A DNA stretch of 38,678 nt, taken from contig DASUBC010000137.1 in NCBI GenBank assembly GCA_035763465.1, positions 1 through 38,678 of the forward strand. The letters are read 5' to 3'. Made by a program: the position numbers and the translations under genes. Shown here piece after piece: positions 3,431 to 25,130 of the stretch. Source of the DNA: Thermomicrobiales bacterium (GTDB lineage: Bacteria; Chloroflexota; Chloroflexia; Thermomicrobiales; CADCWN01). The notes under the pieces were generated by a model. The model was not told the DNA's origin and ran no database searches. It saw only the letters and a list, made by a program, of their open reading frames with translations. Within the stretch, counting starts at the first letter, position 1; each line of letters opens with the position of its first letter.

Positions 3431-3528
3431 ATACTCGTGCTCAGGGCAAAGTCGCCGAAAGGCGGCGGCGCAAAGCTACAGACCTACGGCCCAGTTGGGC
3501 TATGGTGGCTGGGTTGCCTCGGGTGTAT
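3431..3528 (+). promoter_or_regulatory. c-di-GMP-I (GEMM-I) riboswitch-like aptamer in the 5' leader of the GH5-CBM32-SGNH gene
   Basis: - nt 3444-3476 read GGGCAAA-GUCGCC-GAAA-GGCGGC-GGCGCAAAGC, i.e. the conserved GGCAAA and (A/G)CGCAAAGC strands around a GAAA-capped hairpin.
- Helix AGCUAC (3474-3479) / GUGGCU (3505-3510) encloses CCUAC (3483-3487) and UAUGG (3501-3505), resembling the GAAA tetraloop receptor.
- AUAC (3431-3434) / GUAU (3525-3528) can close P1. Confidence 0.7.
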
Positions 3529-3618
3529 TGTTGTGGCCGCTTGCGCTCGCCCAGGATTGGCGCGCCTATGTCGCTCGCGTGATCCCATCCGGCAACCAGC
3601 CCCGGAGAAGACTACCGG

Positions 3619-7719: not shown

Positions 7720-7977
7720 GGCACTCCCGTTGCGACCTGGATGTCCCACGACGTCATTCCCGGTTCGCCGCGTGCGCTGGTATCGTGAGCACTGCGGTCG
7801 AATCTCGCAAGATCGTGACCGGCATCTCTTTTGCTGCCTGTGCCCGCACGGGTGAACCAGTTATGGTCGTCACCGACCCCTGGAGGCGTGCTAGCATGGG
7901 CAACCTGTGGTTGGCATGGCGCGGAGCCAACGTGCAGCAACTGGCCGCTCACGACCAGGAAAGGGTGCTGTCTCAAC

Positions 7978-9693
7978 GTGAGTTCTGTACGGAGCTGCAC
8001 ATGTATCGCTCGTGCCATACTGCTCGCGGGTGTGCTCGCCGGCCTGGCCGGATGTACTGCTGGCCGGGCCATCCCAACACCCACGGCATCCTCCCGGGCT
8101 ACGTCAACGCCCGTAGCGCCGCCGACGCCCACCGCCATTGTGGTGACACCGACCACTGTGCAGAGTCCGACACCCTCCCCGGTGGCTACTCCGAGTCCGC
8201 CGCCGCCCAATCCCTTGCTCTCGCGCGGGCAGCCGACTGCGCCGCCTGAGAGTGCGGTGGTAAGTGGGCACTACTGCGGCTACCCGGCCTGGCACGCGAC
8301 GACCTTCCCGACCACCGTTGCGATCCATGTCGGGTCTGGCTTTGAGCAACTCCTGCTCAGCTGGAACAGCGCCACGACGACCGATTACGTCGCTCTCGAC
8401 CATGCCCCTACCTACGGTATCCCCGCCGACTACACTATCGCCGTCTCCGCTGATTCGACCGATGGCAGCAATGGTACCTGGCGCGAGGTTGTTCGCGTGC
8501 AGGGGAACACCGCGCGCACCCGCGCCCACCGCTTTCCAGCGACCGATGCTGCCTGGGTACGCATGACAGTAACTGCGCTTGCGCCGGGTACCGCCGGTGG
8601 AGCACTGGCGATTGATGAAATAGACATCCACGATGCCTCACGCGGCGCTGCCGACACCGTCTTTTTCATGGGCGACTCTATTACCGCCGCCGCCTTCTCC
8701 CGTTGCGATACCCGGCAGCCGTCGTTCGCCGAACTGGTCCACCGCGCTGCTCCCGGCCGCTTCCCCGCCATGATTGACGGGGGAGTCGGGGGGACGAATA
8801 GCGCGTATGGCCTCCAGGTAGTCAATGACTGGCTGGCGCTGAACCCCGACTTCGCTATCTGGGCGATCGGCTTCGGCACCAACGATGCCTGGCAAGGGGT
8901 GGCGCCGGCTGTCTTCGAACAGCAGATTGAAGCACTGGTCGAGCGCATTAGCGCGGCAGGACGGCGACCGGTGCTGGCGCGCATCCCCTATGCCACTGGC
9001 GGGCCGCCGGACGCCAATGTGCAGGCCCTCAACGCGGTGATTGATCGCATCACCACCCGCGATCACCTCTTGCCCGGCCCGGACCTCTATGCCTGGTTCA
9101 AAGCCAATCCGGGCGAGCTCAGTCCTGACGGCGTCCACCCAACCGACGCTGGCGCGCGCTCGATCAATCGCCTGTGGTACGAGGCGCTACGCCCATTGTA
9201 CGGTGCGGCCTCGCGATCACCCCGTGAGCCGGATGGCCCGCGCCGCCTGACCGGCGACGACGGCGCGCGGTGGAACATCTTTCGTTACGATGGCCCCCGC
9301 ACCGATTATCGCGTCGTCACCAATCGTGACGCCCTTGAGCACGAGCGCACGGCAGCCAAGCCAGACCCGGTCGCCGATGTAGACCGGCTTTGCCACCGGC
9401 GCGGCGCCGGCGATCCCGTGCTGATCCGTATCCATGATCACGACGTCCCAGGCGATCTTGCAGTCGCGGCCGATACGTACCTCCTGCTGGGCGATTATCT
9501 CGGTGTTGCGGTTCAGGTAGGTACCATTGCCAATACTGATGTGCGCGCCGCGCCAGCATTCCAGGCGCACGCCCGGATAGAAGGTGCAATTGGCGGCTTC
9601 GATGTACCCGCCGTCATTCCGGATGACGAGCGGTGGCCACCCCGGTTCGCGCACCAGCAGCCCGGCCCGGGAGAACGATCGGCGCAGCAGTAG
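7978..9693 (+). CDS. lipoprotein with a beta-sandwich (discoidin-like) domain + intact SGNH esterase; the functional 3' end is uncertain
   Basis: GTG 7978 lies downstream of GGAAAGGG; the track start, TTG 7831, is less likely. The lipobox is LAGLAGC, followed by a Thr/Pro linker. SGNH blocks are GDSITAAA, GGVGGTNS, FGTNDA, DGVHPTDAG. The domain appears complete by about nt 9215, but the frame has no stop until 9693. Confidence 0.7.
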   Translation: MSSVRSCTCIARAILLAGVLAGLAGCTAGRAIPTPTASSRATSTPVAPPTPTAIVVTPTTVQSPTPSPVATPSPPPPNPLLSRGQPTAPPESAVVSGHYCGYPAWHATTFPTTVAIHVGSGFEQLLLSWNSATTTDYVALDHAPTYGIPADYTIAVSADSTDGSNGTWREVVRVQGNTARTRAHRFPATDAAWVRMTVTALAPGTAGGALAIDEIDIHDASRGAADTVFFMGDSITAAAFSRCDTRQPSFAELVHRAAPGRFPAMIDGGVGGTNSAYGLQVVNDWLALNPDFAIWAIGFGTNDAWQGVAPAVFEQQIEALVERISAAGRRPVLARIPYATGGPPDANVQALNAVIDRITTRDHLLPGPDLYAWFKANPGELSPDGVHPTDAGARSINRLWYEALRPLYGAASRSPREPDGPRRLTGDDGARWNIFRYDGPRTDYRVVTNRDALEHERTAAKPDPVADVDRLCHRRGAGDPVLIRIHDHDVPGDLAVAADTYLLLGDYLGVAVQVGTIANTDVRAAPAFQAHARIEGAIGGFDVPAVIPDDERWPPRFAHQQPGPGERSAQQ

Positions 9694-9834
9694 GCCCAGA
9701 AAGAGACTGAGGAGTGAATGCTGGTGAAGCCGGTGGCGGACGCGCGCTAGAAGCGTTGCACTATTGGCGCGGCGGCTGGCGATAGCTGTTTGCTGGTGTG
9801 TAGTCGCCGGGGAATACTGCTCCAAATGTTTCAT
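9217..9834 (-). CDS. left-handed beta-helix (hexapeptide repeat) sugar O-acyltransferase
   Basis: Hexapeptide repeats IGNGTYLNRNTEII..IGRDCKIAWDVVI..IGDRVWLGCRALVLKGVTIGDDAIIGAGAIV. ATG 9834 overlaps the upstream stop as ATGA (9831-9834). Confidence 0.85.
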   Translation of the reverse strand: MKHLEQYSPATTHQQTAIASRRANSATLLARVRHRLHQHSLLSLFLGLLLRRSFSRAGLLVREPGWPPLVIRNDGGYIEAANCTFYPGVRLECWRGAHISIGNGTYLNRNTEIIAQQEVRIGRDCKIAWDVVIMDTDQHGIAGAAPVAKPVYIGDRVWLGCRALVLKGVTIGDDAIIGAGAIVTKDVPPRAVVAGQAARAIRLTG

Positions 9835-11480
9835 CGCGTTGCCTCGATGCCAACCTGTGGACTATCGGCCGCCACGCGAGCGCCAGAGAACGCCTGGCGC
9901 AGCAAGAGAGCATGGCAGACCGCCTGCGCCAGGCCGAAACCGAGGACGAGGAGCGGACGCGACTCATGTGCGAAGGTCAGTGAGTAGGCGATGCCACCAC
10001 TCAACACAACGAGGGCGGCGAGCTGCGGCAGCAGCCACAGGGGATTGAGCTGGCCCCCGGCGACTTTTGGCGTCGGGCGGAAGGCGAGTGGCACGCGCAG
10101 GACCGCCAGCAGCCAGGCCAGCGCATAGACGGGCCAGGTGGCGTACACCAGCGCAGTCGCGCGCCAGAGCGGTGTCTGGGGCGTCGTGGGATGTCGCCAG
10201 AAGTTGAGCGCAACCTGCCGGATCACGACCATCATGATTCCCAGCGGTACAAGATGAATCAGGTACTGGTGGAAATTGACCTGAGCAACGCGGCTGCCGG
10301 CGAGCAGTAGCGCCGCGACAAAGAAAATGTGGACGGCGGCAACCGGGCCAATCCAGTAGTAGGTCATGCGGACGCCGTACACCACCCGTTGTCGCCACGT
10401 CAGGCGGAGAAAGAGGCGCGGGTAGGCGATGAGCAGGAGCTCGAAGACACCGCGCGCCCACTTCAGTTGCTGCGTGAACCAGGCGGCGAGGTCGGGCGGC
10501 GCAAGGCCAGGCGCCAGCGGTTCGGCGACATACACGGAACGCCATCCCGCCGCGTGCAGCGCCAGCGAGGTCATCAGGTCTTCGGCCAGGCCGGGCTGAT
10601 AACCGCCAATCGACTCCAGCGCCGTCCGCCGGATGAGCGCGTTGCTGCCAATTAGTGTGGCACAGCCCAGGCCATCCGCGCCCATCGAGGTGGGATTATA
10701 GAAGTCCAGCGTGCTCTCGGCTGCCGCTCGCGCGACCCAGCTCTGCGCGCTGTTGCAGAAGGTGAGCATCACCTGCACAAAGCCTACCGCCGGGTCGGCG
10801 AAATAGCCGATTGATCGTTCCAGGAACGCCGGGGCCGGCGCGTGATCAATGTCGAAGATGGCGACAACATCTCCGGTGGTGCGCGCCAGCGCGGCGTTCA
10901 GATTTCCCGCCTTGGCGTCTTTCCGGCCTGTGCGGACCAGATAACCCGCGCCGAGCTGCGCCGCCAGGCGCTCGCACGCCGGCTCAGCACCGTCGTCCAG
11001 CAGCCAGGTGCGATGCGCGCCGCGCATGACGACCGCTGCCGACAAGGCGCGCTCGATGAGCGGCAGCGGTTCGCCGCATGCGGTCACGAAGACATCAACT
11101 GTCAGGCCAGCTGGCCGAGACGGCGGCGCAGGACGGCGCCGGGCACACAGGTACAAGAGCCACTGGCCGATGACCTGGAACCAGTTGTAGAACGCGGCAC
11201 AGGCAAGGGCGAACGCAAGCCAGGGCGTCGCCAGCCGGCCGCCGTGTCGCCACCAGCTCAGGTAATAGCCCATGGCGGCGAGCCCGAGCAGCACCAGCCC
11301 GCCGAGTGTCCAGGTCCGCCAGCCGGCGGCGAACCAGGTGCTGCACCCGCGCCAGCCATGCGCCAGTGCGCCCAGCAGGCCCGGTGGACCGGCCACGTTC
11401 GCCGGTACTCCGGTCGCACCATGTGCTGCTGGCGATGGCGCGACATCGTCAAAATTGTCGCCGTGGTACGCTCTCACCAT
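9831..11480 (-). CDS. membrane-embedded processive GT2 beta-glycan synthase, BcsA/CelA-like, without a PilZ domain
   Basis: ATG 11480 directly follows AGGAGGGGAGG; the track start at 11519 is less likely. Motifs: LLDDG, DAKAGNLNAAL, FDIDHAP, GSNALIRR, AEDLMTS, QQLKWARG (the D,D,D,QxxRW set). Transmembrane helices flank the catalytic domain. The C-terminus is transmembrane-only. Confidence 0.9.
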   Translation of the reverse strand: MVRAYHGDNFDDVAPSPAAHGATGVPANVAGPPGLLGALAHGWRGCSTWFAAGWRTWTLGGLVLLGLAAMGYYLSWWRHGGRLATPWLAFALACAAFYNWFQVIGQWLLYLCARRRPAPPSRPAGLTVDVFVTACGEPLPLIERALSAAVVMRGAHRTWLLDDGAEPACERLAAQLGAGYLVRTGRKDAKAGNLNAALARTTGDVVAIFDIDHAPAPAFLERSIGYFADPAVGFVQVMLTFCNSAQSWVARAAAESTLDFYNPTSMGADGLGCATLIGSNALIRRTALESIGGYQPGLAEDLMTSLALHAAGWRSVYVAEPLAPGLAPPDLAAWFTQQLKWARGVFELLLIAYPRLFLRLTWRQRVVYGVRMTYYWIGPVAAVHIFFVAALLLAGSRVAQVNFHQYLIHLVPLGIMMVVIRQVALNFWRHPTTPQTPLWRATALVYATWPVYALAWLLAVLRVPLAFRPTPKVAGGQLNPLWLLPQLAALVVLSGGIAYSLTFAHESRPLLVLGFGLAQAVCHALLLRQAFSGARVAADSPQVGIEATR

Positions 11481-11519
11481 AGCCTCCCCTCCTGCCTTCG
11501 CGGAGCTGGAATGTCGCAC

Positions 11520-13082
11520 TCATGTCGAGGTGTGCCCGTGATAACGGATGTCTTCGCTCGCCAGCGCGAGGCGCGTCGCCGGCTCCCTGCGCCAGTGCAA
11601 CGTCCACCAGCTCAGGAGCGCTGCCAGGGGCATGATGGCGCCGACCAGCGTCGTGGCGACGGCACTGACCGGCCAGATGATGAAATGGTTCTCGTAGAGC
11701 ACATCGAGCGGCGCTACCAGGCGGGCGCCGAGCGCCAGTACGATGATCAGCGCGCTCGCGCTACCGCGTGGCGTCAGCGCGAGCAGTGCGATTGGCAGGG
11801 TGGCATACCAGGACCAGTACACAGGAGCCGCCGTAAGCAAGTAGAGTGTGACGATCAGGCCACAGGCGCGTAAGAACCCGTCTGCGTCGCGCGCCTGACG
11901 GCTGAGAAGCAGCATGCTGACGACGAAGAAACCGTCGAGCAGCAGGGTGACCGCCCATGCTGCCCTGGTGGGCGGCAATATATGCGCAAAACCCCAGACC
12001 AGGGCGCCGGAGAGCGAGGCCGTCACTGCCCGCTGCCCACCCTCTGGCACAGCCGCGAAGGTCGCGCCGCCGAGCCAGAAAACGCGGTAGAGCAGCACGG
12101 CCAGGCCGAGTCCGGCCAGGCCGAGGACGAGCAGCGCCGCCAGATTGCGACGGTCACGCCGCCCGTAGTGCAAGTAGACGACGAACGCCGGCAGCAGCAT
12201 AAGCGGCCAAAACTTCACCAGTGCGCCGAGAACCAGGCCGGCCAGTGCGCCGGTCGGTCGCAATTGCACCGCGGCCAGCAGCGCAGCCAGGGTGCAGGCG
12301 ATCAGCAGCGCGTCGTTGTGGCCGTCACCGGCAAATTCTAGAATGATCAGTGGATTCCATAGATATATCAGCGTCCCGAGCAGCTGGTCCTGCGGGCGGA
12401 CCAGCCCGAGGAGGCGCCAGATCAGCCAGGCTGAGGTCAGGCTGGCCGCAACGGCGAGCAGCTTCAAGAGCAGCACGGTGGGGCCGACCTGATGCGCCAG
12501 GCGCAGAGCGGCGATCTCGATGCCGGTCCAGACCGGACCGTATGGCGTAACGCCGTGCCAGGGCAGCCAGCCTGCCGCCAGCAGGCTCACCCCGAACGGT
12601 GTGGCGGCGACCTCGCTCGCCGGCTGGGCGTAGGGGTTGCCGCCGGTCAGACCGAGATAGCCGTGGGCAACGTAGGTGTAGAGATCGCGTGACAGCGTGG
12701 GGCGAGCGACGAGGAGACCGAGGTTGAACAGGATGGGCCACAGCAGCGCCAGCCACGCGGCGCGACCAGCCAGGCGACCGCGCTGGCAAAGGAACACCAG
12801 CCAGCCGTAGAGCGCAAAGAGGGTGAGCGTGCTCGCGTACAATGCGGCGGCTTGGAACACCAGCCGGCTACCATCAGCGGGAGTGCCCGGGCGCAGGCCG
12901 GTGCTTGTTACCGCGCCGCCCGCGTTGATCAGTCCATTGAGGAATAGCCCGCGCTGGGCCAAATAGTCCACGACATAGAGCGCCGCGCTGGCGCCGCCGA
13001 GCAGCAACACGACACGCGGGCGGGTGCCCGTACATTCGCCCACCTTGCTGGCGGTGCTCCAGCGCGTCACGCCGGTTACCAT
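11520..13082 (-). CDS. polytopic GT-C-fold membrane glycosyltransferase (DUF2029/GT87-like)
   Basis: The plausible start is ATG 13082 (MVTGV...), overlapping the GT4 stop by 7 nt. Many transmembrane segments. SRDLYTYVAHG..GGNPY sits in the first loop, and WNPLIILEFAGDGHNDALL is a family-typical motif. The track ORF's extra 217 N-terminal residues are an Arg-rich overlap with the GT4 gene. Confidence 0.8.
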   Translation of the reverse strand: MVTGVTRWSTASKVGECTGTRPRVVLLLGGASAALYVVDYLAQRGLFLNGLINAGGAVTSTGLRPGTPADGSRLVFQAAALYASTLTLFALYGWLVFLCQRGRLAGRAAWLALLWPILFNLGLLVARPTLSRDLYTYVAHGYLGLTGGNPYAQPASEVAATPFGVSLLAAGWLPWHGVTPYGPVWTGIEIAALRLAHQVGPTVLLLKLLAVAASLTSAWLIWRLLGLVRPQDQLLGTLIYLWNPLIILEFAGDGHNDALLIACTLAALLAAVQLRPTGALAGLVLGALVKFWPLMLLPAFVVYLHYGRRDRRNLAALLVLGLAGLGLAVLLYRVFWLGGATFAAVPEGGQRAVTASLSGALVWGFAHILPPTRAAWAVTLLLDGFFVVSMLLLSRQARDADGFLRACGLIVTLYLLTAAPVYWSWYATLPIALLALTPRGSASALIIVLALGARLVAPLDVLYENHFIIWPVSAVATTLVGAIMPLAALLSWWTLHWRREPATRLALASEDIRYHGHTST

Positions 13083-14323
13083 GCTGGCCCCGGCTTTCCG
13101 CCGCTGTCGCGTAACACTGGCGCGACCAGCGCGGGTAACGCGGCGTAGAAGCGCTCCAACCGGGTTACGGCGGCGTCCCAGCTGTAGCGAGCTTCGGCGG
13201 CCTGCCGCGCCGCAGCGCCGAGGCGGCGGGCGAGCGCGCCGTCGTCCAGCACGCGGCAGACCTGCCGGGCGAAATCCTGCGCGGTATCCGCCAGCAGCAA
13301 CTCTCGCTCGCCCGTGACAGCAAGTCCTTCCGCGCCAAGCGTTGTCGAGACGATCGCCTTCCCCATCGCCAGCGCCTCGACAATCTTCAAGCGCGTGCCA
13401 CCGCCGATTCGCAGCGGCGCGATGACCACGGAGGCCCGCGCGAGATACGGACGCACATCGTCCACCAGACCGGTGACGATGACGTCCGCGCTGGCCCGGC
13501 TGGTGATCACCTCCGGCGGCGACTGGCCGACAATCCACACGCGCACGCCGGGCTGGCGCTGCCGGATCAACGGCAGGATCTCGTCGAGGAAGTAGCGCAC
13601 TGCATCGGTGTTGGGATAGTAGTTGATTGCGCCAAAGAAGAGGATAGTGCCCGGCTCGGGCGCGGCCTCGGCCGGGCGAAACGCGCTGGTGTCCACCGCA
13701 TTCGGGATGACCGCCGTCGGCAGATCGGGACACTCTCGGCGCACGAACGCCTCGTCCCGCGCCGAGGTCGTCAGGCAGCCGGTGAATCGGCGCCAGGCCG
13801 CGTGTTCTTCACGGCGCAACTTGCGGTAATTGATCGCGTTGTAGACCTTCCGGTCGAGGCGCCGATCGGCCGTGGCGGTGCGCCGGAGCACGTCATACTC
13901 GATATTGTGCTCATCCAGGACAAGGCGCGGGCCGTGCGGCAGCCGGTAGGACGCGAGCTGCGCGAATTCGGCGGTGATCACGTCGAAGCGTTCGCGCGCG
14001 ACGAGCGCATCGAGCGCCGCCTGGAAGGCCGGACGATGATGGACCAGCCGTTCAAAACTCCACGGACTCGCCAGCGATACCAGTTGCAGCGCCCGCTTCT
14101 GCCGCGCTGTCAGCCCGTAGCGGTTGTTCGGCACGGTCAGCACCGTGCCGCAGTATTCGCGTGTGGCGCGCACCGCTGCCGTCTGATCCTTGGCTGGGTC
14201 TACCAGCGCCAGCACCGCGACGTCATGCGACTGTGCCAGGCCGGACATCAGCCCCTGCAGCCGTCGTGGCCCACCGGACTGCGGCGGACTGGGCAGGTAG
14301 GGTGTGAGAAAGAGCAGTCTCAT
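13076..14323 (-). CDS. GT4 (GT-B fold) glycosyltransferase
   Basis: MRLLFLTPYLPSPPQSGG N-terminus; C-terminal GGTRLKIVEALAMGKAIVST (EX7E-type) motif. Confidence 0.9.
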   Translation of the reverse strand: MRLLFLTPYLPSPPQSGGPRRLQGLMSGLAQSHDVAVLALVDPAKDQTAAVRATREYCGTVLTVPNNRYGLTARQKRALQLVSLASPWSFERLVHHRPAFQAALDALVARERFDVITAEFAQLASYRLPHGPRLVLDEHNIEYDVLRRTATADRRLDRKVYNAINYRKLRREEHAAWRRFTGCLTTSARDEAFVRRECPDLPTAVIPNAVDTSAFRPAEAAPEPGTILFFGAINYYPNTDAVRYFLDEILPLIRQRQPGVRVWIVGQSPPEVITSRASADVIVTGLVDDVRPYLARASVVIAPLRIGGGTRLKIVEALAMGKAIVSTTLGAEGLAVTGERELLLADTAQDFARQVCRVLDDGALARRLGAAARQAAEARYSWDAAVTRLERFYAALPALVAPVLRDSGGKPGPAW

Positions 14324-14338
14324 AGCAGGCTCAGTCGC

Positions 14339-14896
14339 TCATTCAAACAATGGCCGGTAGGCGCGGCGCCGGCTGCACGGTTGCTGAGATCGGGCGCCGA
14401 TCGGACGCGCCGGGACGCCACCGACGACGGTGTACGGGGGTACATCTCGCGTCACGACGGCGCCCGCAGCGACTACCGCGCCTTCACCGAGCGCCACCCC
14501 CGGTAAGATCAGCGCCCGGCTGCCGATCCAGACATAGTCGCCTACGGTGATCGGTGCGAGCACTTCGGGGAAGGCCGGGTCATGCAGGTCGTGACCATCG
14601 GTCAGCAGCCAGGCGCCCGGCGAGATATCTACATGGTCGCCAATGTGCAGCCCGCCCCGGCCGTCGAGGCAGCAGCCCTGGTTGATTACCGTGTTGCGCC
14701 CGATCACAATCCCGCGCTTACCTGGCTGGGACCGGCCGCGAATGTGGATATACTGGCCCAGCAGCAGGGCCGAGCCAGCGCCGATTTCGATCCCGACAAT
14801 GCGGCGATACCACGCGTGGCGGACGGTGTATGAGGGGACGTGGGCGATCACATGGTTGGTCAGATAGCGCGTCAGCGCCAGCACCAGGCCCTTCAT
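14339..14896 (-). CDS. hexapeptide-repeat acyltransferase (WcaF/WbbJ-like O-acetyltransferase)
   Basis: Motifs [60 protein letters not shown]. There is an ATGA overlap with the wzx stop (14893-14896). Confidence 0.85.
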
Positions 14897-17927: not shown

Positions 17928-17979
17928 GCCGAGTTCCCTTCCTTCTCCTCCCGTGCCCCGGGCACGGCGGTGCTTGCGC

Positions 17980-18120
17980 TCACAGAATGCCCGTCACGTA
18001 ATCCAGCGCGACGAGCCCCACCACGGCGACGAGAATCAGCCACTTCACTGCGGTGTCAAACCGCCGCACCGCCAGGCCGAGACAGCAGAAGATGACCACG
18101 AGTCCGGCCACGATGAGCAC
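17980..18120 (-). CDS. candidate 46-aa two-TM small membrane protein (below the ORF-track cutoff)
   Basis: GTG 18120 lies 7 nt after AGGAG. Translation: VLIVAGLVVIFCCLGLAVRRFDTAVKWLILVAVVGLVALDYVTGIL*. Third codon positions are GC-rich. It fills the 258-nt gap between the kinase-like gene and the Wzy-like gene. Confidence 0.35.
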   Translation of the reverse strand: MLIVAGLVVIFCCLGLAVRRFDTAVKWLILVAVVGLVALDYVTGIL

Positions 18121-18185
18121 GATCGTCTCCTCACCGGCGTAGCGTCCGGCCGGGCAGGTCGCCCTGGCGCCGGGCCTACGGCCGC

Positions 18186-18872
18186 TTATAGGCGCTGTTC
18201 CAGCCAGGCCGGGAGGTCCCGCCGGCTATCGTTGAGCACTGTGCCCAGGACGCGTGTTCCCGCCAGCTCGTCCAGCGCCTGGCGCACCAGTTTGGTCGGG
18301 GTGACACCCGCACGGACAACGAGCAGGAGCTGGTCGGTCAGGCCGGCGAGCACGCGCGTATCAGTGCTGGTGAGCACTGCCGGCAGATCGAGAATGCTCA
18401 GGGCAAACCTCCGCCGGATTTCGGCGAGGACCGGGCCGAGCGTGGCGCCACGAATCAGCAGGGGGAACGTGCTGGCTGGCTCGCCTAGCGGCAAGACCAG
18501 CAGATGGTTATAGCCGCTCGGCCGAATGGCGAAGTCAAGCGGGCAGTCGCCGCGCAGCACCTGGATCAGTCCAGGTCCCGGAGCGACGGCCAGTTCGGGC
18601 GTCACCGCCCGCTGGCCCTGGTTGCAGTCAACCAGCAGGACATCCCCCGGCCGCTGTTCCCCGCCGTGCAGTGTGCCTTCTCGGGCGAGGGTCGTCGCCA
18701 GGCCGGTTGCAATCGTTGTCTTGCCCTCACCTGTGATCGCGCTCGTCACCCCGAGCACGACATGCTCCTCACCCGGCCAGCTCAGAAGCACCCGCGTGTA
18801 GAGGTCACGGAAGACGTACTGGATATCGAGATTCCCTGGTGGGGCTGGCTTGCGCCGCGGTAAGGCGATCAC
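18186..18872 (-). CDS. CpsD/CapB-type (BY-kinase-like) P-loop ATPase
   Basis: GTG 18872 lies 7-8 nt after AGGAG; the track start at 19037 overlaps the upstream gene. Walker A is GVTSAITGEGKTT, the A'-like strand is VLLVDCNQG and Walker B is ILDLPAV. The protein ends ...DLPAWLEQRL with no tyrosine cluster. Confidence 0.8.
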   Translation of the reverse strand: MIALPRRKPAPPGNLDIQYVFRDLYTRVLLSWPGEEHVVLGVTSAITGEGKTTIATGLATTLAREGTLHGGEQRPGDVLLVDCNQGQRAVTPELAVAPGPGLIQVLRGDCPLDFAIRPSGYNHLLVLPLGEPASTFPLLIRGATLGPVLAEIRRRFALSILDLPAVLTSTDTRVLAGLTDQLLLVVRAGVTPTKLVRQALDELAGTRVLGTVLNDSRRDLPAWLEQRL

Positions 18873-18921
18873 ACACGTTCTCCTCTCGCGTCGGTGCCAT
18901 GACGTGGCGCCGGCATCCTCG

Positions 18922-19968
18922 TCAATCAGACCCAGTGGCCGGCTCGACCACCGGCAGACTTGCGCCGCGCTGCGTGGCCGGCTGGGCGCGACCGCGTTGC
19001 CACTTCCGGCGAGCAGGGCGCAGGTGTGGCACAACATCGAGCACGGGCACGTCGCTCAGCTGGCGGAGGTCATCCGGAGTACGCAGGGTCGTGTCCTGCC
19101 AGGTGGCGAGGGCAATCGCCGCGACGACCAGCGCGAGACTGGCCGCGATGCCGAAGCCGAGATACTTCACGATCTTGCCGAGCGTCGCCGAGGGATGGGC
19201 CGGCAGGGCCGGTGCATCGAGCACCTGGAACTGCGCCTGGCGGCTGCTATCGTCGAGCGATTGGGCGGCATTCGCCTGCTCGATCTTCGCCTGCGTCTCC
19301 GCATAGAGCGCCCGCGCCGAGTCGAGCGCGCGCTGGAGGCTCTGGAGTTGCAGGTACTGCGGCGAGGCGGGGTCGGGATACGGATGCTGCTGCTGAAACT
19401 CATCTACCTGCTTCGCCGCGTCGTTGACCTGGTTCTGGTAGATCTGTAGTTGCTTCTCGTAGAACTGCCGCTCGATGGTGTTCTGCTCGACGGTCGCCGT
19501 AAGATTCCAGGCGAGGAACGCATCGATCGTGCTTTTGACGGTCTGCTGGCAGAGGGCCGGATCGCCATCGCGGTAGCTGATCCGCACCGTGTTCGAGCCG
19601 AGCGCGGTCACGCCCAGGCGGCTCCGCACGTCGGCGATGGCGCGCCGATCTTCATCTGGATTGCCGGTGAGGCGGCCGGCTGCCGCAGTGTCCTTCATGA
19701 TCCCGGCGACGAACGAGTCAGTCTGGATCAGCTGCCCGAGCTTGTCGGCTTGCTGCTGCGCTGGTGGCGCGACGTAGCCGGGCGGCGCATTGGGTGTCAG
19801 CACGTTGTCGAGTACCGGCTTCTCCACCCAGATGCGCGCGGCCGCTTCGTACTGCGAGTGGGCCAGGTAGTAGGCGCCGACACCGGCCGCGCCGAGCAGC
19901 AGCGCCAGAATCGGGAGATACAGCCATTTGCCCCGGTAGAAGGTGGCGAGATAGCGTCTGATACTCAC
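18922..19968 (-). CDS. polysaccharide co-polymerase / chain-length determinant (Wzz/GumC-type)
   Basis: N-terminal transmembrane helix (WLYLPILALLLGAAGVGAYYL), a long coiled-coil-like periplasmic region, and a C-terminal transmembrane helix (LGFGIAASLALVVAAIALATW). GTG 19968 overlaps the upstream TGA (GTGA). Confidence 0.85.
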   Translation of the reverse strand: MSIRRYLATFYRGKWLYLPILALLLGAAGVGAYYLAHSQYEAAARIWVEKPVLDNVLTPNAPPGYVAPPAQQQADKLGQLIQTDSFVAGIMKDTAAAGRLTGNPDEDRRAIADVRSRLGVTALGSNTVRISYRDGDPALCQQTVKSTIDAFLAWNLTATVEQNTIERQFYEKQLQIYQNQVNDAAKQVDEFQQQHPYPDPASPQYLQLQSLQRALDSARALYAETQAKIEQANAAQSLDDSSRQAQFQVLDAPALPAHPSATLGKIVKYLGFGIAASLALVVAAIALATWQDTTLRTPDDLRQLSDVPVLDVVPHLRPARRKWQRGRAQPATQRGASLPVVEPATGSD

Positions 19969-21299
19969 TTCGTGCCTGTCTCCTCGCTCATCGTCTGCAT
20001 GACGGGTCGCTCGGTCGCGAAAAGGGGCGCTACACTATCGGTCAGGGTCGGACCGGAACTCATTCCTCGACCAAGCAGTACATCAGTACCGCGGTGTTCA
20101 CCGGCCACGGACACGCTGTCCGGCGCCGCCACGGCATCGCCGAGCACCGCGTGGCAATAGCAGTGCTGCTGGTGTTCCCAGCAATACTCCCGGTAGCGGC
20201 GGCTCGCGCTTGCCACCATCCACTGCGCCCGCTCGGGGTGGTGGTAGAGGGTGAGGATGCGCCGGGCCAAGTCGGCCGGGTCATCGGCAACGAAGAACCC
20301 GAAGCAGGCATCGTCGAAGTAATCCCGCACCGCGCGCGTTTCACCGATGATGACTGGCCGCCGCATTGCGACATACTCAAACATCTTCTGAGTATGGGCG
20401 AGTTCCCAGAAGGGGTCGCGCCGCGTGGCTACCAGGCCCACATGCGCCCGCGTGATGCCCGCCAGTAACTCCTCATGGGGCACGAAGCCTTTGAGCTGGA
20501 CCCGGTCTGCGACCCCGAGTTCGTGGATGAGGGCGGTCAGATCGGGCAAGTATTGTCCTCGTCCGTAGATCTGGAGCGTGAGGCCGGGAATCTCCTCCCG
20601 GAGGAGCGCGACCGCCCGAACCATGGTGTCGTGACCGTAGCGCTGCTCAATGAGACCGTGGGTAATCAGCCGGAACGGGGCGCCGGGGCGCCAGGGAGCC
20701 GGACCGGTATCACGCGGCCTGAAGAGTGCCGTATTGGCCGAATTCAGCACAATGGTGATTTTCTCCGCCCGTGCGCCTCGTGCCACATAGGTATCTCGCT
20801 GCTGCGGTGTGCAAACAATCGCCTGATCCGCGAATCTGATGCTCGCCTGCTCTGCCAGGCCGAGCAGCCGGACCATTGGGTGACTGGCCGCCACCTGATA
20901 CTTGGTCAGGAAGAGCTCGGGCATACTTTCGTGCATGTCGAGGACAATGCGTGCGCCGAGCAGTTTGGGCAGCGCCGCGACGAAGACCAGAAGATCGGGC
21001 ATAGTGTTGACCTGTACTACGGCATAACGACGCCGCAGGTGCCGCCAGGTCAACGTCAGGCAGGCCAGGACGAAAAAGGCGCCATACTCAAAGCAGTAGC
21101 GCGCGACTGAGCCGCGCCGGTGCTCGACCGGCAACCGGCGTACCCGCACGCCATTGACCTCGTCGTGCGGCGCCTCGCCGGCCTTGCGGAGGGCGAGCAC
21201 CTCGACGTCATGTCCCGCTGCGGCCAGCGCCTCGGCCTCGCGCCGGCCGCGTGGATCCTCGGGATAGTAATAATGCCTCACGATACAGATACGACTCAT
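19965..21299 (-). CDS. GT4 (GT-B fold) glycosyltransferase
   Basis: MSRICIVRHYYYPEDPRGRREAEALAAAGHDVEV N-terminus and a two-Rossmann layout. About 60 aa of low-complexity C-terminal tail. Confidence 0.85.
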   Translation of the reverse strand: MSRICIVRHYYYPEDPRGRREAEALAAAGHDVEVLALRKAGEAPHDEVNGVRVRRLPVEHRRGSVARYCFEYGAFFVLACLTLTWRHLRRRYAVVQVNTMPDLLVFVAALPKLLGARIVLDMHESMPELFLTKYQVAASHPMVRLLGLAEQASIRFADQAIVCTPQQRDTYVARGARAEKITIVLNSANTALFRPRDTGPAPWRPGAPFRLITHGLIEQRYGHDTMVRAVALLREEIPGLTLQIYGRGQYLPDLTALIHELGVADRVQLKGFVPHEELLAGITRAHVGLVATRRDPFWELAHTQKMFEYVAMRRPVIIGETRAVRDYFDDACFGFFVADDPADLARRILTLYHHPERAQWMVASASRRYREYCWEHQQHCYCHAVLGDAVAAPDSVSVAGEHRGTDVLLGRGMSSGPTLTDSVAPLFATERPVMQTMSEETGTK

Positions 21300-21381
21300 C
21301 AGCCCCCCAGTGTCGTCAACAATGTCTGACCAGCGGCGGCGAACCCTGGCCTGAATCCGCCACCACGGCCACGATTCACAA

Positions 21382-22875
21382 CTAGTACGCGCCCCGCCCG
21401 GTCAGGACGGCCGGAATGGTGCGCAGGATGATGGTGATGTCGAGCCAGAGCGACCAGTGCTCGGCGTAATAGAGGTCGAGATGAGTCTGCTCCGTGAAGG
21501 TCAGATGGCTGCGTCCGTTGACCTGCCAGAGACAGGTGATCCCCGGCGTCATGTCCAGCCGGCGGCGCTGCCAGGGCTCGTACTGGGCGACTTCGTCCGG
21601 CAGGTGGGGGCGCGGTCCGACGACGCTCATCTCACCGCGCAGGACATTCAGGAAGTTGGGGAATTCATCGAGGCTCGTCCGGCGCAACCAGCGTCCCACG
21701 CGCGTGCAGCGTGGGTCGTCCTTCCGCTTGAACATAATGCGGTCGCCGGTGTACTGGGGGTCCAGCGCGAGTTGCTCGCGCTCCTGGTCGGCGCCGACGC
21801 GCATCGTACGGAACTTGTAGCAGGTAAAGGGCATGCCATTGCGTCCGACACGGCGATGCCGGTAAAGGATCGGGCCGGGGGAATCGAGCCGGATGAACAG
21901 GGCGATGACGGTAAGCGGCAGAGCGCCAAGGAGCAGCATGGTGGCGGCGAAAGCAATGTCAAAGCCACGCTTGAGAACACGATTTCCGCCGTGGAGACTG
22001 CGGTCCGCCACACTCAGGAGCGGTAGCCCGTCCAGTTGATGGACCTGAAAGCGGTCGAGGCCGAGTTCGCAAAGGTCCGGCAGTAGCATGAAGGGCACGC
22101 GGGCGGCGCGACAATGCTCGATTACCTCGTGCAGTTGCTCGTGTGCAGTCGGGTGGAGCGCGACGATCACTTCATCAATGGCATGCTCTTCGAGCAGTGC
22201 GGGTAGACGATCGAGCTCACCCAGTGCACGAGGCCGCACGACTGCATGCTGGGTGGCAATGGCCCAGCTGGCGCCCCGAGTGAGATCGTCAACGAAGCCG
22301 ATCACATCGTATCCGAGTTCGGGCTGGCCGATCAGCGCACTCATGACCCGCTCTCCTGCCGGGCCGGCGCCGACGACCAGCACCCGGTCAACCCAGCGGC
22401 GACGGGCGCGCATCCAGGCCCGGAAGTTGTGCCAGGCGAGACGCGTGCTGGTGAGCAGCAGCATGGAGAAGATCAGCGCATAGAGGAGAACCAGTCGCGA
22501 GAAGAAGAAATGGCGTCCATAGAAAACGATGACGCTCAGGGAGCTGAAACTGATAATCACGCTCCCAATGACGAGCCGCGCCTCATCAAGGAAGCCGGTC
22601 CAGCGGGGCAGGCGATAGATGCCACGCCAGGCGAAGATCGTGAGCAGAATGCTCGCGAGCAAGACCACAATCGGCAGGAAACTGCTGAAAGGTCGCAAGT
22701 CATCGCTGCCAACCGGGCCGCCGATCCGCTCCTGGTAGCGCAGGAAGTGGGCGAGCCAGAAACTGATCGCAATCGCCGCGAGATCGGCGCCGACGCGCAC
22801 AGGCAGGGGCAGCCGTTGCCCACCACGCGACCGGACAGATTCGACTTGCGCTTGTTGCACGACTTGTACTGCCAT
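21382..22875 (-). CDS. large polyprenyl-phosphate glycosylphosphotransferase (WbaP/EpsB-type priming enzyme)
   Basis: N-terminal transmembrane block, a Rossmann-like VLVVGAGPAGERV domain, and a C-terminal bacterial sugar-transferase domain (DSPGPILYRHRRVGRNGMPFTCYKFRTM..DEFPNFLNVLRGEMSVVGPRPH). GGGAGA lies upstream of ATG 22875. Confidence 0.9.
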   Translation of the reverse strand: MAVQVVQQAQVESVRSRGGQRLPLPVRVGADLAAIAISFWLAHFLRYQERIGGPVGSDDLRPFSSFLPIVVLLASILLTIFAWRGIYRLPRWTGFLDEARLVIGSVIISFSSLSVIVFYGRHFFFSRLVLLYALIFSMLLLTSTRLAWHNFRAWMRARRRWVDRVLVVGAGPAGERVMSALIGQPELGYDVIGFVDDLTRGASWAIATQHAVVRPRALGELDRLPALLEEHAIDEVIVALHPTAHEQLHEVIEHCRAARVPFMLLPDLCELGLDRFQVHQLDGLPLLSVADRSLHGGNRVLKRGFDIAFAATMLLLGALPLTVIALFIRLDSPGPILYRHRRVGRNGMPFTCYKFRTMRVGADQEREQLALDPQYTGDRIMFKRKDDPRCTRVGRWLRRTSLDEFPNFLNVLRGEMSVVGPRPHLPDEVAQYEPWQRRRLDMTPGITCLWQVNGRSHLTFTEQTHLDLYYAEHWSLWLDITIILRTIPAVLTGRGAY

Positions 22876-22917
22876 ACCAGTCTCCCGCTTGTGCCTGTAT
22901 CGCTTGTGTCTATGGTC

Positions 22918-23550
22918 TTATGGCGCCCGGTGAGATGGGCTTTTGGTGTGCCCCGCACGCTTTTTCCTGCGCTGGCCCAGCCGGGTGGCGCCGGCAAGGT
23001 GATGTTCGAGCGCGATCAACAGCATCGGTACAATGCCGAGGACGAGAATGAGCACGGCAAGCACGACGTCTATAACTCGATCAACCTGATAGCGCGGCGC
23101 CTGCATCCAGGGCTCCAGCCAGATCCGCGCCAGTGGGCGGGCGGTCAGGAGAACCAGATCCAGCACAAAGGCATACACAAAGATCAGCCGCGAGAACGAG
23201 AACTCCTGCGAGTAGTAGACAAAGACAATCAACAGCGCGAAGGCGCTCAGGAGGCTGCTGGCGATCAAGCGGACTTCGTCACGCGGACGAGACCAGCCGG
23301 TGAGCCGGTAACCCCCCCGGACTGCAAAGAGACCGATAGCGAGCGCACTCAGCAGAAGCGCCACCGGTAGGAAGTCGCGAAAGTGGCGGAAATCCTCCTG
23401 ATCCACTGAACCACCCAGGCCAGCCTGGTAGCGCATGATGTAGGCAAGCCAGAAGCCTATGCCAATCAGGAGCAGATCAGTGCCGGTGCGCGCCGCCGCC
23501 CCGAACAGTCCTGCGGCCTGGCGCGGTCTATGCAGAAGATGCGCGTCCAT
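22918..23550 (-). CDS. truncated paralog of the adjacent PGT: N-terminal TM block + first PGT helix only, no catalytic core
   Basis: Residues ~20-150 align by eye with residues ~28-160 of the 21382-22875 protein, e.g. FWLAYIMRYQAGLGGSV../FWLAHFLRYQERIGGPV.. and FSFSRLIFVYAFVLDLVLLT/FFFSRLVLLYALIFSMLLLT. DRVIDVVLAVLILVLGIVPMLLIAL resembles KRGFDIAFAATMLLLGALPLTVIAL. A strong GGAGGAGGGAGA abuts ATG 23550. Confidence 0.6.
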   Translation of the reverse strand: MDAHLLHRPRQAAGLFGAAARTGTDLLLIGIGFWLAYIMRYQAGLGGSVDQEDFRHFRDFLPVALLLSALAIGLFAVRGGYRLTGWSRPRDEVRLIASSLLSAFALLIVFVYYSQEFSFSRLIFVYAFVLDLVLLTARPLARIWLEPWMQAPRYQVDRVIDVVLAVLILVLGIVPMLLIALEHHLAGATRLGQRRKKRAGHTKSPSHRAP

Positions 23551-23610
23551 TCTCCCTCCTCCGTGGTGGCCAGCGGTATCCAGCGGGTGGCACGCTCCTT
23601 CCGTGCCCGG

Positions 23611-24816
23611 TTACCGGGCTGTTCGCAACCAGGGCGTGCTGCCCCGGCGGAGGGCAGCCCCGAGGTATACCGGAAACTTCCAGACAATGAATACTGGGGC
23701 CCAGAGCAGCGATAGATAGAAGCGCGGCGAGCGTGCTGGCAGGAGTGTCAGCCCACGCAGGATATAGAGACCCTGGGCGAGCAGCGCGAGGCCGGCCGGC
23801 ACGATAACCGTGAGTGAACCGAGCAGTGCCCCTAGTGCGACAAGCCCAACGGCGCCCCCGCCCGCAATCGTGAAGGGTGGAATGAGCAGTTCTAGCGCCC
23901 CGTCAATAGGCGCCCACGACCGTTGCTGCAGCCCCTGGTGGAGGAGGTGTGGCGTGTAGCGGCGTAGCGCGTCCAGCCGCCCGCGTTCCCAGCGCTCGTT
24001 CTGGCTGCGCGCGGCCACCAGCGAGGCGGGCATCCAGGTTTGAACACGGGCGGTGGGGGCGAACGCGACGCGGTAGCCATCCGCCACTAGCCGGCTATGC
24101 AGTTCGTGATCCTCGGCCAGCGCGTCCGGTTCCCACCGATAATGGGCGGCGACCTCGCGCGCAAAGCACATCCCGTTGCCGCGCAGCCCAGCCGATAGGC
24201 CAAGCGTGCTACGGCCGAGGGGGCGGAGTGTCGCGACGCAGCAGTACGCAATGGCGCGCAAACCGCTGACCCAGGACTCGTCTGGGTTGGCGATATCAAC
24301 CCGAGCCTGGATGACCGCTTCCCCTCCTTGCACTGCTGCTGCCAGGACGGTCAACAGATCCGGGGCGACCGTGGAATCAGCGTCGAGAACCACAATGGCG
24401 TCGTAGGGGACCGCGTCGTTGCCGGCAGCATCAAGCTGGTCAAGGAGTGAGTTGAGTGAACGCGCCTTGCCCGGCGCGGCCGGATCGCTCCGTTCGTGGA
24501 CCCGTGCACCGAAGTCCCGCGCGATGGCGGCGGTCTCATCGCGGCAATGGTCTGCAACGACATGAGTCGCAAACAGCGCTGGCGGGTAGTCCAGCGCGGC
24601 AATACTCCTCAATAGCTGGCCAATCACGCGCTCCTCGTCGTGAGCGGGGATCAGGAGCGCGAATCGCGTCGCAGGGGCGGTCTTTGCACGCTGGTGGCGC
24701 GGCGCGAAGAGGCTGGCAGCAGCCAGCACCAGTGGATACAGTCCCAGCGCGACCAGCGCGATGCCCCCCGCCGCTAGTGGGGCGATAACCGCCGTCCGGC
24801 GAGCCTTTACGACCAT
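23611..24816 (-). CDS. membrane GT2 glycosyltransferase with a synthase-like signature (first gene of the operon)
   Basis: ATG 24816 follows AGAGGAA; an alternative start lies at 24888. Motifs: LLIPAHDEE, VVLDADS, LRGNGMCFAR, LAEDHELH, SQNERWERGR (QxxRW-like). One N-terminal and several C-terminal transmembrane helices. Confidence 0.85.
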   Translation of the reverse strand: MVVKARRTAVIAPLAAGGIALVALGLYPLVLAAASLFAPRHQRAKTAPATRFALLIPAHDEERVIGQLLRSIAALDYPPALFATHVVADHCRDETAAIARDFGARVHERSDPAAPGKARSLNSLLDQLDAAGNDAVPYDAIVVLDADSTVAPDLLTVLAAAVQGGEAVIQARVDIANPDESWVSGLRAIAYCCVATLRPLGRSTLGLSAGLRGNGMCFAREVAAHYRWEPDALAEDHELHSRLVADGYRVAFAPTARVQTWMPASLVAARSQNERWERGRLDALRRYTPHLLHQGLQQRSWAPIDGALELLIPPFTIAGGGAVGLVALGALLGSLTVIVPAGLALLAQGLYILRGLTLLPARSPRFYLSLLWAPVFIVWKFPVYLGAALRRGSTPWLRTAR

Positions 24817-25090
24817 GCCGCCATTCCTCTGCTTCAGAAGGCAGCCCTGCGGCGCAATGCGGTAGCTAGGCGAGGACAGCATCCTCACCGGCAGGGCACG
24901 GGTATTTCGTTATTGCGCGTTAGCCACTATTCGCGGGCCGACGGTGCCTTCCCGCTTGGTGGAGCAGCAGCCACAGTACGGTACAGAATGTCCCCGCTAG
25001 CGCAACGAATGACGGACACCGCATCCCAATGCCGCTAGCGCCGCCCATCCTTTACGCCACCGACCCTGTTGCCCTGTGCCTCATCAGCAC

Positions 25091-25130
25091 GGACAACAAA
25101 AACCGGCAGACGTCAATGCGTCGGCCGGTT
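25091..25130 (-). terminator. canonical intrinsic terminator on the minus strand
   Basis: The minus strand reads AACCGGCCGACG-cattg-CGTCTGCCGGTT (11 of 12 bp) followed by TTTTTGTTGT. It lies just upstream of the EPS operon promoter region. Confidence 0.55.

Follow-up and report, generated by a model that had tools for sequence, protein, structure and literature searches.

A probable mosaic exopolysaccharide operon containing a GT-C and BcsA-like glycosyltransferase cassette in a Thermomicrobiales bacterium

Introduction

The exopolysaccharide (EPS) pathway of Myxococcus xanthus, composed of EpsZ, EpsU, EpsH/E/D/A, Wzx, Wzy, EpsV, and EpsC (PMC7484181), and the cellulose synthase BcsA-BcsB (PDB entries 4hg6, 4p00, and 9b8v) are described systems with which the locus reported here can be compared. 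The locus is carried by contig DASUBC010000137.1 of a Thermomicrobiales bacterium (phylum Chloroflexota, assembly GCA_035763465.1). The whole stretch analyzed, positions 1 to 38,678 of the forward strand, is referred to as the window, and the locus occupies positions 9217–24888 of its minus strand. The operon genes are labeled G1 to G13 plus a micro-ORF (open reading frame), and the flank genes are labeled F1 to F5. The locus is probably a mosaic EPS operon controlled by cyclic di-GMP (c-di-GMP), in which a Wzx/Wzy core is combined with a separable cassette of two genes, G3 and G2, that would make a product of its own. The sequence data favor two autonomous modules within one operon over a single obligate hybrid route.

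The locus shares with the M. xanthus EPS pathway a PHPT-type phosphoglycosyl transferase (PGT), an EpsU-like glycosyltransferase (GT) of family GT2, GT4 glycosyltransferases, Wzx, Wzy, a polysaccharide copolymerase (PCP), and an acetyltransferase. The M. xanthus EpsU, Wzx_EPS, and Wzy_EPS models are the best NCBIfam matches of G13, G6, and G7, with scores far under the equivalog cut-offs (224 against 700, 85 against 800, and 65 against 670, respectively). EpsU is one of five GTs in the M. xanthus Wzx/Wzy pathway (PMC7484181), so a membrane GT2 with a QxxRW motif has precedent within a Wzy cluster. Unlike the M. xanthus system, the locus is without an outer membrane polysaccharide export (OPX) protein, its ATPase is encoded by a separate gene and has no tyrosine cluster, and it adds the cassette and a riboswitch.

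G2 shares with BcsA the GT2 core, the interface and transmembrane (TM) helices, and a gating-loop-like motif. It differs from BcsA-BcsB in being without PilZ, BcsB, BcsC, and BcsZ (a glycoside hydrolase (GH) of family GH8), in carrying QxxKW in place of QxxRW, and in having a conserved GT-C partner. Unlike in BcsA, c-di-GMP would act through an RNA leader and not through the protein.

The cellulose systems of monoderms, namely those of Streptomyces and the clostridial acetylated-cellulose system, combine a BcsA-type synthase with a linked glycoside hydrolase and with accessory genes that depart from the canonical set, as outlined in an excerpt of PMC8892547. The same excerpt makes no mention of a GT-C partner for these systems. 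According to it, the clostridial system has a BcsB homolog and membrane acyltransferases, neither of which is present at this locus, and known cellulose O-acetylation is carried out by envelope-embedded acyltransferases of the MBOAT type (PMC8892547). No match to an MBOAT/AlgI-type acyltransferase was found beside the synthase, and the only acetyltransferase-family matches in the operon are two left-handed beta-helix (LbH) proteins.

Membrane GT2 enzymes are genetically coupled to GT-C enzymes that use a polyprenyl-phosphate sugar on the outside in GtrB/GtrC-type systems, in ArnC/ArnT, and in Ppm1/Pmt. The GT2 of all these systems is a small, non-processive polyprenyl-phosphate-sugar synthase, whereas G2 has the full BcsA-type channel architecture. 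The c-di-GMP riboswitches of the locus (RF01051 and RF01786) are full-model matches on the correct strand and in 5’ leaders. The aptamers themselves are ordinary, and the point of note is that two classes would govern an EPS operon and a linked hydrolase gene at one locus.

Each component is familiar, be it the Wzx/Wzy operon, the BcsA-like synthase, the GT-C enzyme, or the c-di-GMP riboswitch, and it is their arrangement that is new. No description of a GT-C paired with a cellulose-synthase-like protein, nor of a Wzy/synthase hybrid in Chloroflexota, was found in the literature. Chloroflexota are plentiful in soil and sludge, yet little is understood of the polymers that make up their matrices and sheaths. 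A hybrid-looking cluster of this kind can arise by the entry of a self-contained synthase cassette into a conserved Wzx/Wzy operon, which advises caution in reading mixed clusters as single pathways.

Operon layout

The window has a GC content of approximately 66%, and its DNA recurs across many soil and rhizosphere metagenomes. The bacterium is an uncultured soil organism, and the proteins encoded by G2 and G13 are 99–100% identical to NCBI proteins from metagenome-assembled genomes labeled Thermomicrobiales. Every real gene between 9217 and 24888 is on the minus strand. There are fourteen in total when a micro-ORF of 46 amino acids is counted as the fourteenth, and the order of transcription is G13-G12-G11-G10-G9-G8-micro-ORF-G7-G6-G5-G4-G3-G2-G1. 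Minus-strand overlaps are formed by ATGA at 9831–9834, 14893–14896, and 16356–16359, by GTGA at 19965–19968, and by ATGGTAA at 13076–13082. A first-pass annotation, made from the sequence alone, had listed fourteen same-strand genes with these overlaps, and the positions agree exactly. The other junctions are 0–82 nucleotides, with the sole exception of the 258 nucleotides from G8 to G7, which are occupied by the micro-ORF. The overlaps and small gaps support the translationally coupled unit proposed in that annotation, and the fourteen genes form one tightly packed, probably co-translated unit.

The likely start of G2 is the ATG at 11480 and that of G8 is the GTG at 18872, each with a sequence resembling a ribosome binding site (RBS) on its 5’ side. 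The G2 ORF is 562 amino acids in length, and the annotated start is 13 codons further downstream. The likely start of G13 is the ATG at 24816, which is backed by a 401-amino-acid NCBI protein (P0162, 99% identical over its full coverage).

The BcsA-like, GT-C, and last acetyltransferase genes could be mere neighbors of the core genes, transcribed separately for an unrelated product. The mobile or variable position of the cassette among related loci, and RNA contigs that give no single transcript (both described under Comparative genomics), would agree with such an arrangement. The gene junctions stand against it, with a coding overlap of 7 nucleotides between G4 and G3, a gap of 39 nucleotides between G3 and G2, and an overlap of 4 nucleotides between G2 and G1. 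A simple consensus scan of positions 8800–25800 for promoters and terminators gave sites no more often than chance and none in intergenic gaps. No minus-strand promoter-like site was found in that range, and the terminator-like sites found were all inside genes. G1 belongs to the core and lies downstream of the cassette, so core transcription has to pass through the cassette. Separate transcription is regarded as very unlikely, and a single transcript would be expected.

The G3–G2 cassette

G3 (11520–13082, minus strand) is the first cassette gene and encodes a GT-C transferase of the MptA/MptB family. The family PF26314 is precomputed for P0121, which is identical to G3, and for all 41 homologs. 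TIGR03459 (MptA) matches with an E value of 2.5e-11, and a Pfam profile scan yielded just a weak PIG-U match. The AlphaFold2 (AF2) model of G3 has a pLDDT of 88 and a pTM of 0.89. Its Foldseek matches with E below 0.4 are exclusively GT-C folds (PIG-U, GPI-MT-I 9wno, ALG6 6snh, PimE 9dm5, and ALG3 9s6r), with query-normalized TM-scores (TMq) of about 0.5 and target-normalized scores (TMt) of 0.54–0.67. Residue D133, located in a short helix following an early TM helix, is invariant in 30 homologs, which suggests that G3 is an active enzyme. It is a candidate for the acidic residue that GT-C enzymes conserve in the first extracytoplasmic loop. The fold class of G3 (PimE/ALG/PIG-M-like) takes polyprenyl-monophosphate monosaccharide donors and not undecaprenyl-pyrophosphate (Und-PP) oligosaccharides. 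The GT-C transferase and two hexapeptide acyltransferases of the first-pass annotation are both upheld, the former by PF26314 and the GT-C-only folds and the latter by Hexapep matches.

G2 (9831–11480, minus strand) is the second cassette gene and encodes a BcsA-like membrane GT2 synthase without PilZ, matched by TIGR03030. Scores against the curated families are below cut-off, at 198 against 699 bits for TIGR03030 and 156 against 992 bits for PRK11498. In a PDB sequence search, the best solved relatives are BcsA of E. coli and Rhodobacter (E 3e-37 and 7e-35). The motifs DDG, KAGN, DxDH, ED, and Q..KW align with BcsA. The last of these is QQLKW (QxxKW, with R changed to K) and is invariant in 20 homologs. 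FRPTPK is conserved at the position of the BcsA gating loop (FxVTxK), and the protein stops approximately 80 residues later. The AF2 model has a pLDDT of 81 and a pTM of 0.82. Its top eight Foldseek matches are all BcsA (TMq 0.59–0.70), followed by CesA and hyaluronan synthases. The match to 4p00 has an E value of 2e-22 and a TMq of 0.70 over 579 columns, and the Dol-P-Man-synthase-like PcManGT ranks 19th.

No match to PilZ or BcsB was found among the window proteins scanned. As modeled, G2 folds like processive synthases that form a channel, and it is BcsA-like but not a BcsA. The BcsA-like GT2 had been named as such in the first-pass annotation, where it was one of two GT2s credited with QxxRW. 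That motif is present in G13 (QNERW) and is replaced by QQLKW in G2.

Some members of the G2 family (P0034, P0035, P0043, P0068, P0087, P0116, and P0117) contain GAF domains, which are a possible small-molecule input replacing PilZ. Other members, such as P0059, P0074, and P0085, are approximately 900–970 amino acids in length and have a second GT2 domain fused.

The pair could also be a two-component glycosylation system following the logic of GtrB or ArnC with a GT-C. G2 would make, and perhaps flip, a polyprenyl-phosphate sugar or short oligosaccharide, and G3 would transfer it to an acceptor on the outside, candidates being proteins, wall glycans, and the Wzy polymer. The adjacency and fusion of GT2 and GT-C resemble systems of a GT2 polyprenyl-phosphate-sugar synthase with a GT-C, and the window shows no further synthase that could supply the donor. 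G2, however, still looks like a processive synthase, with a membrane domain of many helices as in BcsA, the ED and Q..KW motifs, and the gating-loop-like FRPTPK, and its structural matches to BcsA, CesA, and hyaluronan synthases come ahead of PcManGT. Stand-alone cassettes, moreover, usually carry a soluble GT2 that is a possible donor synthase. Taken together, these features make a two-component glycosylation system decidedly improbable.

A broader proposal is that the GT-C and PilZ-less BcsA-like pair constitutes an undescribed type of synthase-dependent secretion in monoderms, with the GT-C replacing BcsB and priming, branching, or anchoring the growing glycan on the outside. The pair is adjacent or fused in dozens of Chloroflexota. 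At this locus it would be wired into a riboswitch-controlled Wzx/Wzy pathway to give a composite or co-assembled matrix. The proposal is speculative, and we would not expect it to hold in full.

Comparative genomics

A total of 80 loci with a G2 homolog were taken from species-representative genomes, along with contigs with G2, G3, and G13 homologs. The closer G2 set comprises 57 distinct loci, mostly labeled Chloroflexota, in which the G2 homolog is 46–67% identical. A protein with 7–11 TM helices lies directly upstream of the synthase on the same strand in 27 of the 57 loci and close by in others. GT-C candidates were scanned in 28 cases (26 neighbors, G3, and the homolog in locus L001). PMT_2 is matched by 20 of these, and the few that remain match PMT, STT3, GT87, or PIG-U. 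In one protein (P0015), an MptA_B GT-C is fused to a BcsA-like GT2. The pair is widespread and apparently unstudied in Chloroflexota, and its adjacency in 27 genomes together with the fusion makes it a well-defined target for structural and expression studies.

Most of these cassettes stand apart from any Wzx/Wzy cluster resembling that of the window. Homologs of the window's Wzx/Wzy core genes were detected in hardly any flank of the stand-alone cassettes. In these cassettes the synthase is usually followed by, or fused to, a soluble GT2. The cassette is separable and stands alone in many Chloroflexota. Distant G2 homologs (Acidobacteriota, Bacteroidota, and Ignavibacteria) are mostly without a GT-C partner. 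The closest G3 homologs outside the operon (L084 and L085, 48–51% identical) adjoin a gene for an NAD-dependent epimerase. Since no BcsA-like GT2 lies near them, GT-C enzymes of the MptA/B type also work outside the pairing.

The core is found without the cassette as well. Locus L088 has the order G13-G10-G9-G8-G7-G6-G5-G4-G1 followed by a convergent F5, with two glycoside hydrolase genes nearby, one F4-like GH5 and one GH113, and no G2 or G3 match is present within 20 kb. In locus L087 the core is the same, an F3-like GH5 gene lies beside G13, and no GT-C separates G4 from G1. G1 homologs (72–78% identical) follow the G4 homolog directly in L088 and after a 187-amino-acid gene in L087. A third locus, L089 from Chloroflexus, has a G13-like GT2, Wzy, a 47-amino-acid gene, the ATPase, PCP, and Hexapep genes. 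G13 homologs head the same core in all three loci. The GT4, PCP, Wzy, and Wzx genes of the long-read contig L088 are fragmented, for which assembly frameshift errors are a likelier cause than real pseudogenes.

The combination of GT-C, BcsA-like GT2, and Wzx/Wzy genes, for which the first-pass annotation had suggested a synteny search, also occurs in L001 and L091. The order at the 3’ end is G4-G3-G2-G1 in the window, G4-G3-G1-G2 in L001, G4-G3-G2 without G1 in L091, and G4-G1 in L088. The closest relative (L090) has G4-G3, after which the contig ends 36 codons into another ORF. For the core genes G4 to G7, L001, L091, L087, and L088 are mutually 68–81% identical and are 54–69% identical to the window. 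In the identity matrices, the cassette-bearing L001 and L091 share a clade with the cassette-less L087 and L088, apart from the window and L090. Within that clade, therefore, the cassette has moved or been lost.

From this gene content, G13, both acetyltransferases, and the GH5 and SGNH genes are assigned to the Wzx/Wzy core, and only G3 and G2 form a second, separable route. The first-pass annotation had treated G13 as a second synthase-type GT2, which does not fit an EpsU-like protein that heads the Wzx/Wzy core in relatives. It had also considered the hydrolases and acetyltransferases to be counterparts of a beta-glycan synthase, but in L088 they occur with the core in the absence of a BcsA-like or GT-C gene. 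Acetylation of the synthase product by the hexapeptide acetyltransferases was rejected as well, as both track the Wzx/Wzy core in relatives and belong to a family that acts in the cytoplasm.

The hybrid locus of the first-pass annotation stands in so far as a Wzx/Wzy set, a BcsA-like GT2, and a GT-C are present in one unit. Taken as one true pathway, the Wzx/Wzy proteins and the synthase would jointly make a single composite, O-acetylated polymer. In a variant, the GT-C would attach Wzy-type units, carried on a lipid, to the glycan that the synthase extrudes, and the GH5 and SGNH proteins would remodel the composite. The genes are overlapping and on one strand, the G4/G3 overlap is kept in four loci, the donors of GT-C enzymes are lipid-linked and used outside the membrane, and the combination persists in two clades at 54–69% core-gene identity. 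Each module, however, is found alone elsewhere, and the acetyltransferases and hydrolases track the core and not the cassette. The existence of three gene orders, and of members of one clade that have lost or simply lack the cassette, speaks against a partnership that is obligate, and the donors of the G3 fold class are polyprenyl-monophosphate monosaccharides and not Und-PP-oligosaccharides. A joint pathway is on these grounds unlikely.

Several points weigh against the interpretation of two autonomous modules under c-di-GMP control. L087 is cut at the G1 homolog, which leaves room for G2 farther downstream. G13 has a NodC/HAS-like topology with QxxRW, which is compatible with a processive role. 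The window shows no polyprenyl-phosphate-sugar synthase that could supply the GT-C. The G3 start overlaps the G4 end by 7 nucleotides in the window and L090, and L001 and L091 have comparable overlaps. The translational coupling that this indicates would also fit functional integration. Searches of the related loci with Rfam gathering scores, E values up to 0.1, and a core-motif pattern gave no riboswitch, so c-di-GMP control would be specific to this lineage. Finally, four RNA-type runs gave scattered, low-depth contigs of 150–300 nucleotides, none of which links the fourteen genes. Root metatranscriptome contigs (X30) lie in G2, G11, and the leader (25137–25296), and some libraries may contain DNA.

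With two modules in one operon as the preferred reading, the following model is proposed. At high c-di-GMP, the leader would permit transcription of the operon. G11 would start a repeat unit on undecaprenyl phosphate, and G13, G10, and G4 would extend it. G5 and G1 would O-acetylate the repeat unit in the cytoplasm, after which G6 would flip it and G7 would polymerize it, aided by G9, G8, and perhaps the 46-amino-acid microprotein. The secreted proteins F2 to F5 would trim or deacetylate the core polymer, and the c-di-GMP-I riboswitch would place F3 under the same signal. The cassette would most likely make its own product. G2 would polymerize a UDP-sugar into a beta-linked glycan through its own channel, and G3 would branch, prime, or anchor this glycan on the outer face using a polyprenyl-phosphate sugar. 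As the modules would share one transcript, both polymers would be produced at the same time.

The Wzx/Wzy core genes

Profile searches with Pfam and NCBIfam confirm the complete Wzy-dependent set of the first-pass annotation (PGT, Wzx, Wzy, PCP, ATPase, and two GT4s). G13 (23611–24816, minus strand) encodes the EpsU-like membrane GT2 and scores 224 bits against NF041865 (EpsU), for which the cut-off is 700. The alignment spans model positions 20–390 of 394. Glyco_tranf_2_3 is matched with 99 bits, and the PDB comparison gave no informative solved relative.

G11 (21382–22875, minus strand) is a PGT of the WbaP type and the initiating enzyme, with matches to Bac_transf (221 bits) and CoA_binding_3 (79 bits). 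G12 (22918–23550, minus strand) is a truncated PGT paralog with only a partial CoA_binding_3 match. It consists of the N-terminal region of four TM helices and a remnant of the fifth, without the catalytic domain, and is 45% identical to residues 27–147 of G11. One of the fourteen genes counted in the first-pass annotation is therefore just the N-terminal membrane part of a PGT, while G11 is a full PGT. G12 may be either a pseudogene or a leftover with a regulatory role. The G13 and G10 homologs adjoin in L087 and L088 and are fused in L001, with no PGT between them. The simpler reading is that G12 and G11 were gained in the lineage of the window, with loss elsewhere as the alternative.

The two GT4 glycosyltransferases are encoded by G10 (19965–21299, minus strand; Glyco_trans_4_4, 74 bits; Glyco_trans_1_4, 57 bits) and G4 (13076–14323, minus strand). 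The latter is TIGR03087-like (240 bits) and also matches Glyco_trans_1_4 (100 bits). G6 (14893–16359, minus strand) is the Wzx flippase, with Polysacc_synt at 82 bits and NF041871 (Wzx_EPS) at E 3e-24. G7 (16356–17927, minus strand) is the Wzy-type polymerase, with Wzy_C at 43 bits and NF041870 (Wzy_EPS) at E 6e-18. The Polysacc_synt score of G6 and the Wzy_C score of G7 both exceed the Pfam cut-offs.

G9 (18922–19968, minus strand) is the PCP, or chain-length determinant (Wzz, 26 bits; TIGR03007, E 1e-33). G8 (18186–18872, minus strand) is a P-loop ATPase resembling bacterial tyrosine kinases (BY-kinases), with a match to TIGR03018 (E 1e-25) and the Walker A motif GEGKTT. Read from the GTG at 18872, which is preceded by GAGGAG, it is 228 amino acids in length, in agreement with the L090 homolog. 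Its C-terminal tail (…LNDSRRDLPAWLEQRL) is free of tyrosine and has no tyrosine cluster, which makes kinase autophosphorylation doubtful, and G8 may be unable to autophosphorylate. The tyrosine pseudokinase EcpK reportedly has a role in M. xanthus EPS synthesis.

The micro-ORF (17980–18120, minus strand) encodes a 46-amino-acid microprotein with two TM helices that is conserved between the ATPase and Wzy genes. It is 49% identical to a 47-amino-acid gene of L001 (2685–2828) at the matching position. Counterparts of 46–47 amino acids are also present in L087 (6258–6401) and L089 (13573–13716), and no family match was found for the microprotein.

G5 (14339–14896, minus strand) is a WcaF-like hexapeptide (LbH) O-acetyltransferase (Hexapep, 44 bits; NF007797, E 3e-22). 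G1 (9217–9834, minus strand), the last gene, is a WbbJ-like hexapeptide O-acetyltransferase (Hexapep, 48 bits). Members of the LbH family are soluble acetyl-CoA enzymes that act in the cytoplasm. No match to the OPX family was found among the ORFs scanned across the window, and an OPX protein is probably dispensable in the Chloroflexota envelope.

Riboswitches and leader

The 5’ leader of the operon contains a c-di-GMP-II riboswitch aptamer at 25114–25198 on the minus strand. It matches Rfam RF01786 with 70.2 bits (gathering score 53.5) and an E value of 6e-14 over the full model (1–84), and lies 297 nucleotides upstream of the G13 ATG. A terminator-like hairpin at 25093–25128 on the minus strand is present in both the minimum free energy (MFE) and centroid folds. 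It is composed of CCGGCCGACG and CGUCUGCCGG, followed by a U-run, UUUUUGUUGU, and overlaps the 3’ end of the aptamer. The hairpin is a putative expression platform, in the arrangement typical of platforms that act by transcription termination. Since it overlaps the aptamer, the ligand would compete with the terminator, making the switch ON with c-di-GMP. The c-di-GMP-bound leader would then probably allow read-through, standing in for the absent PilZ domain.

A c-di-GMP-I riboswitch aptamer is present in the leader of F3 at 3435–3521 on the plus strand and ends 97 nucleotides before the F3 start. It matches the full model of Rfam RF01051 with 74.7 bits (gathering score 35) and an E value of 5e-13. 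The predicted placement of the operon and F3 under the same messenger supports a functional link between the operon and this gene, its largest hydrolase/esterase gene. A class II switch on the EPS operon and a class I switch on the GH5-SGNH gene suggest control at the RNA level where the synthase is without PilZ.

An alternative pairing of the aptamer 3’ end with the region before the RBS is visible in the F3 leader, but its fold is no better than that of shuffled sequences (z −0.18). Matches to ‘mir-5918’ in L088 score below the gathering threshold, hit a single site on both of its strands, and were taken as spurious. A 217-amino-acid ORF (3288–3941) overlying the c-di-GMP-I aptamer is also probably spurious.

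Flanking genes

The first-pass annotation had placed two GH5-type hydrolases and three SGNH-module proteins immediately upstream of the operon. These proteins are present, but the genes sit past the 3’ end of the operon, mostly convergent on it, and are not transcriptionally upstream. One of the SGNH-module proteins, F2, also lacks the catalytic serine and histidine. A region resembling a carbohydrate-binding module (CBM) and an SGNH module are common to F2, F3, and F5. F1 (9–917) has neither a family nor a PDB match.

F2 (1367–3205, plus strand) encodes a secreted protein with the CBM-like region, an SGNH-like module, and two C-terminal repeats, and is a paralog of F3 and F5. It contains GDY, GTTD, and DGLNPT in place of GDS, GTND, and DGVHPT, so that the catalytic serine is now tyrosine and the histidine is now asparagine. 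Its CBM match is AlyQ 7d29 (E 3e-4). From these substitutions, F2 is probably a non-catalytic binding protein. The C-terminal repeats are approximately 50 amino acids each (…YFERxRxEYHPEN).

F3 (3619–6432, plus strand) encodes a secreted protein with GH5, CBM-like, SGNH, and C-terminal domains (Cellulase, 87 bits; Lipase_GDSL, 34 bits). It is conserved in L001 (63%), L087 (68%), and L091. F4 (6463–7749, minus strand) encodes a secreted GH5-type hydrolase nearest to beta-1,4-mannanases (PDB 2c0h, E 8e-23) and is conserved in L001 (64%). In L091, a 423-amino-acid gene between the SGNH and GH5 genes resembles F4 by size and position only and has no Pfam match.

F5 (7831–9693, plus strand) encodes a lipoprotein with an LAGC lipobox, a CBM-like region, and an SGNH esterase (Lipase_GDSL_2, 72 bits). 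The motifs GDS, GTND, and DGVH are intact, and the SGNH module looks active. Homology ends near 9216, yet the ORF runs on for 477 nucleotides (approximately 158 codons) antisense into G1. Codon 463 of F5 is the reverse complement of the G1 stop codon, and the L001 homolog stops approximately 5 codons past the aligned end. The antisense overlap of F5 and G1 looks like a rearrangement scar by which the intergenic region was removed.

Past the 5’ end of the operon is a LuxR-family AAA/TPR regulator (25680–28682, plus strand), with the leader and a 149-amino-acid ORF intervening. The right flank beyond it (features at 34971–37955 on the plus strand and at 31878–34421 and 38451–38521 on the minus strand, among others) contains a BTAD/NB-ARC/TPR regulator and a secreted DUF642+PKD protein. 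An FAD/BBE oxidase, a luciferase-like monooxygenase, and a tRNA gene are also present in the right flank.

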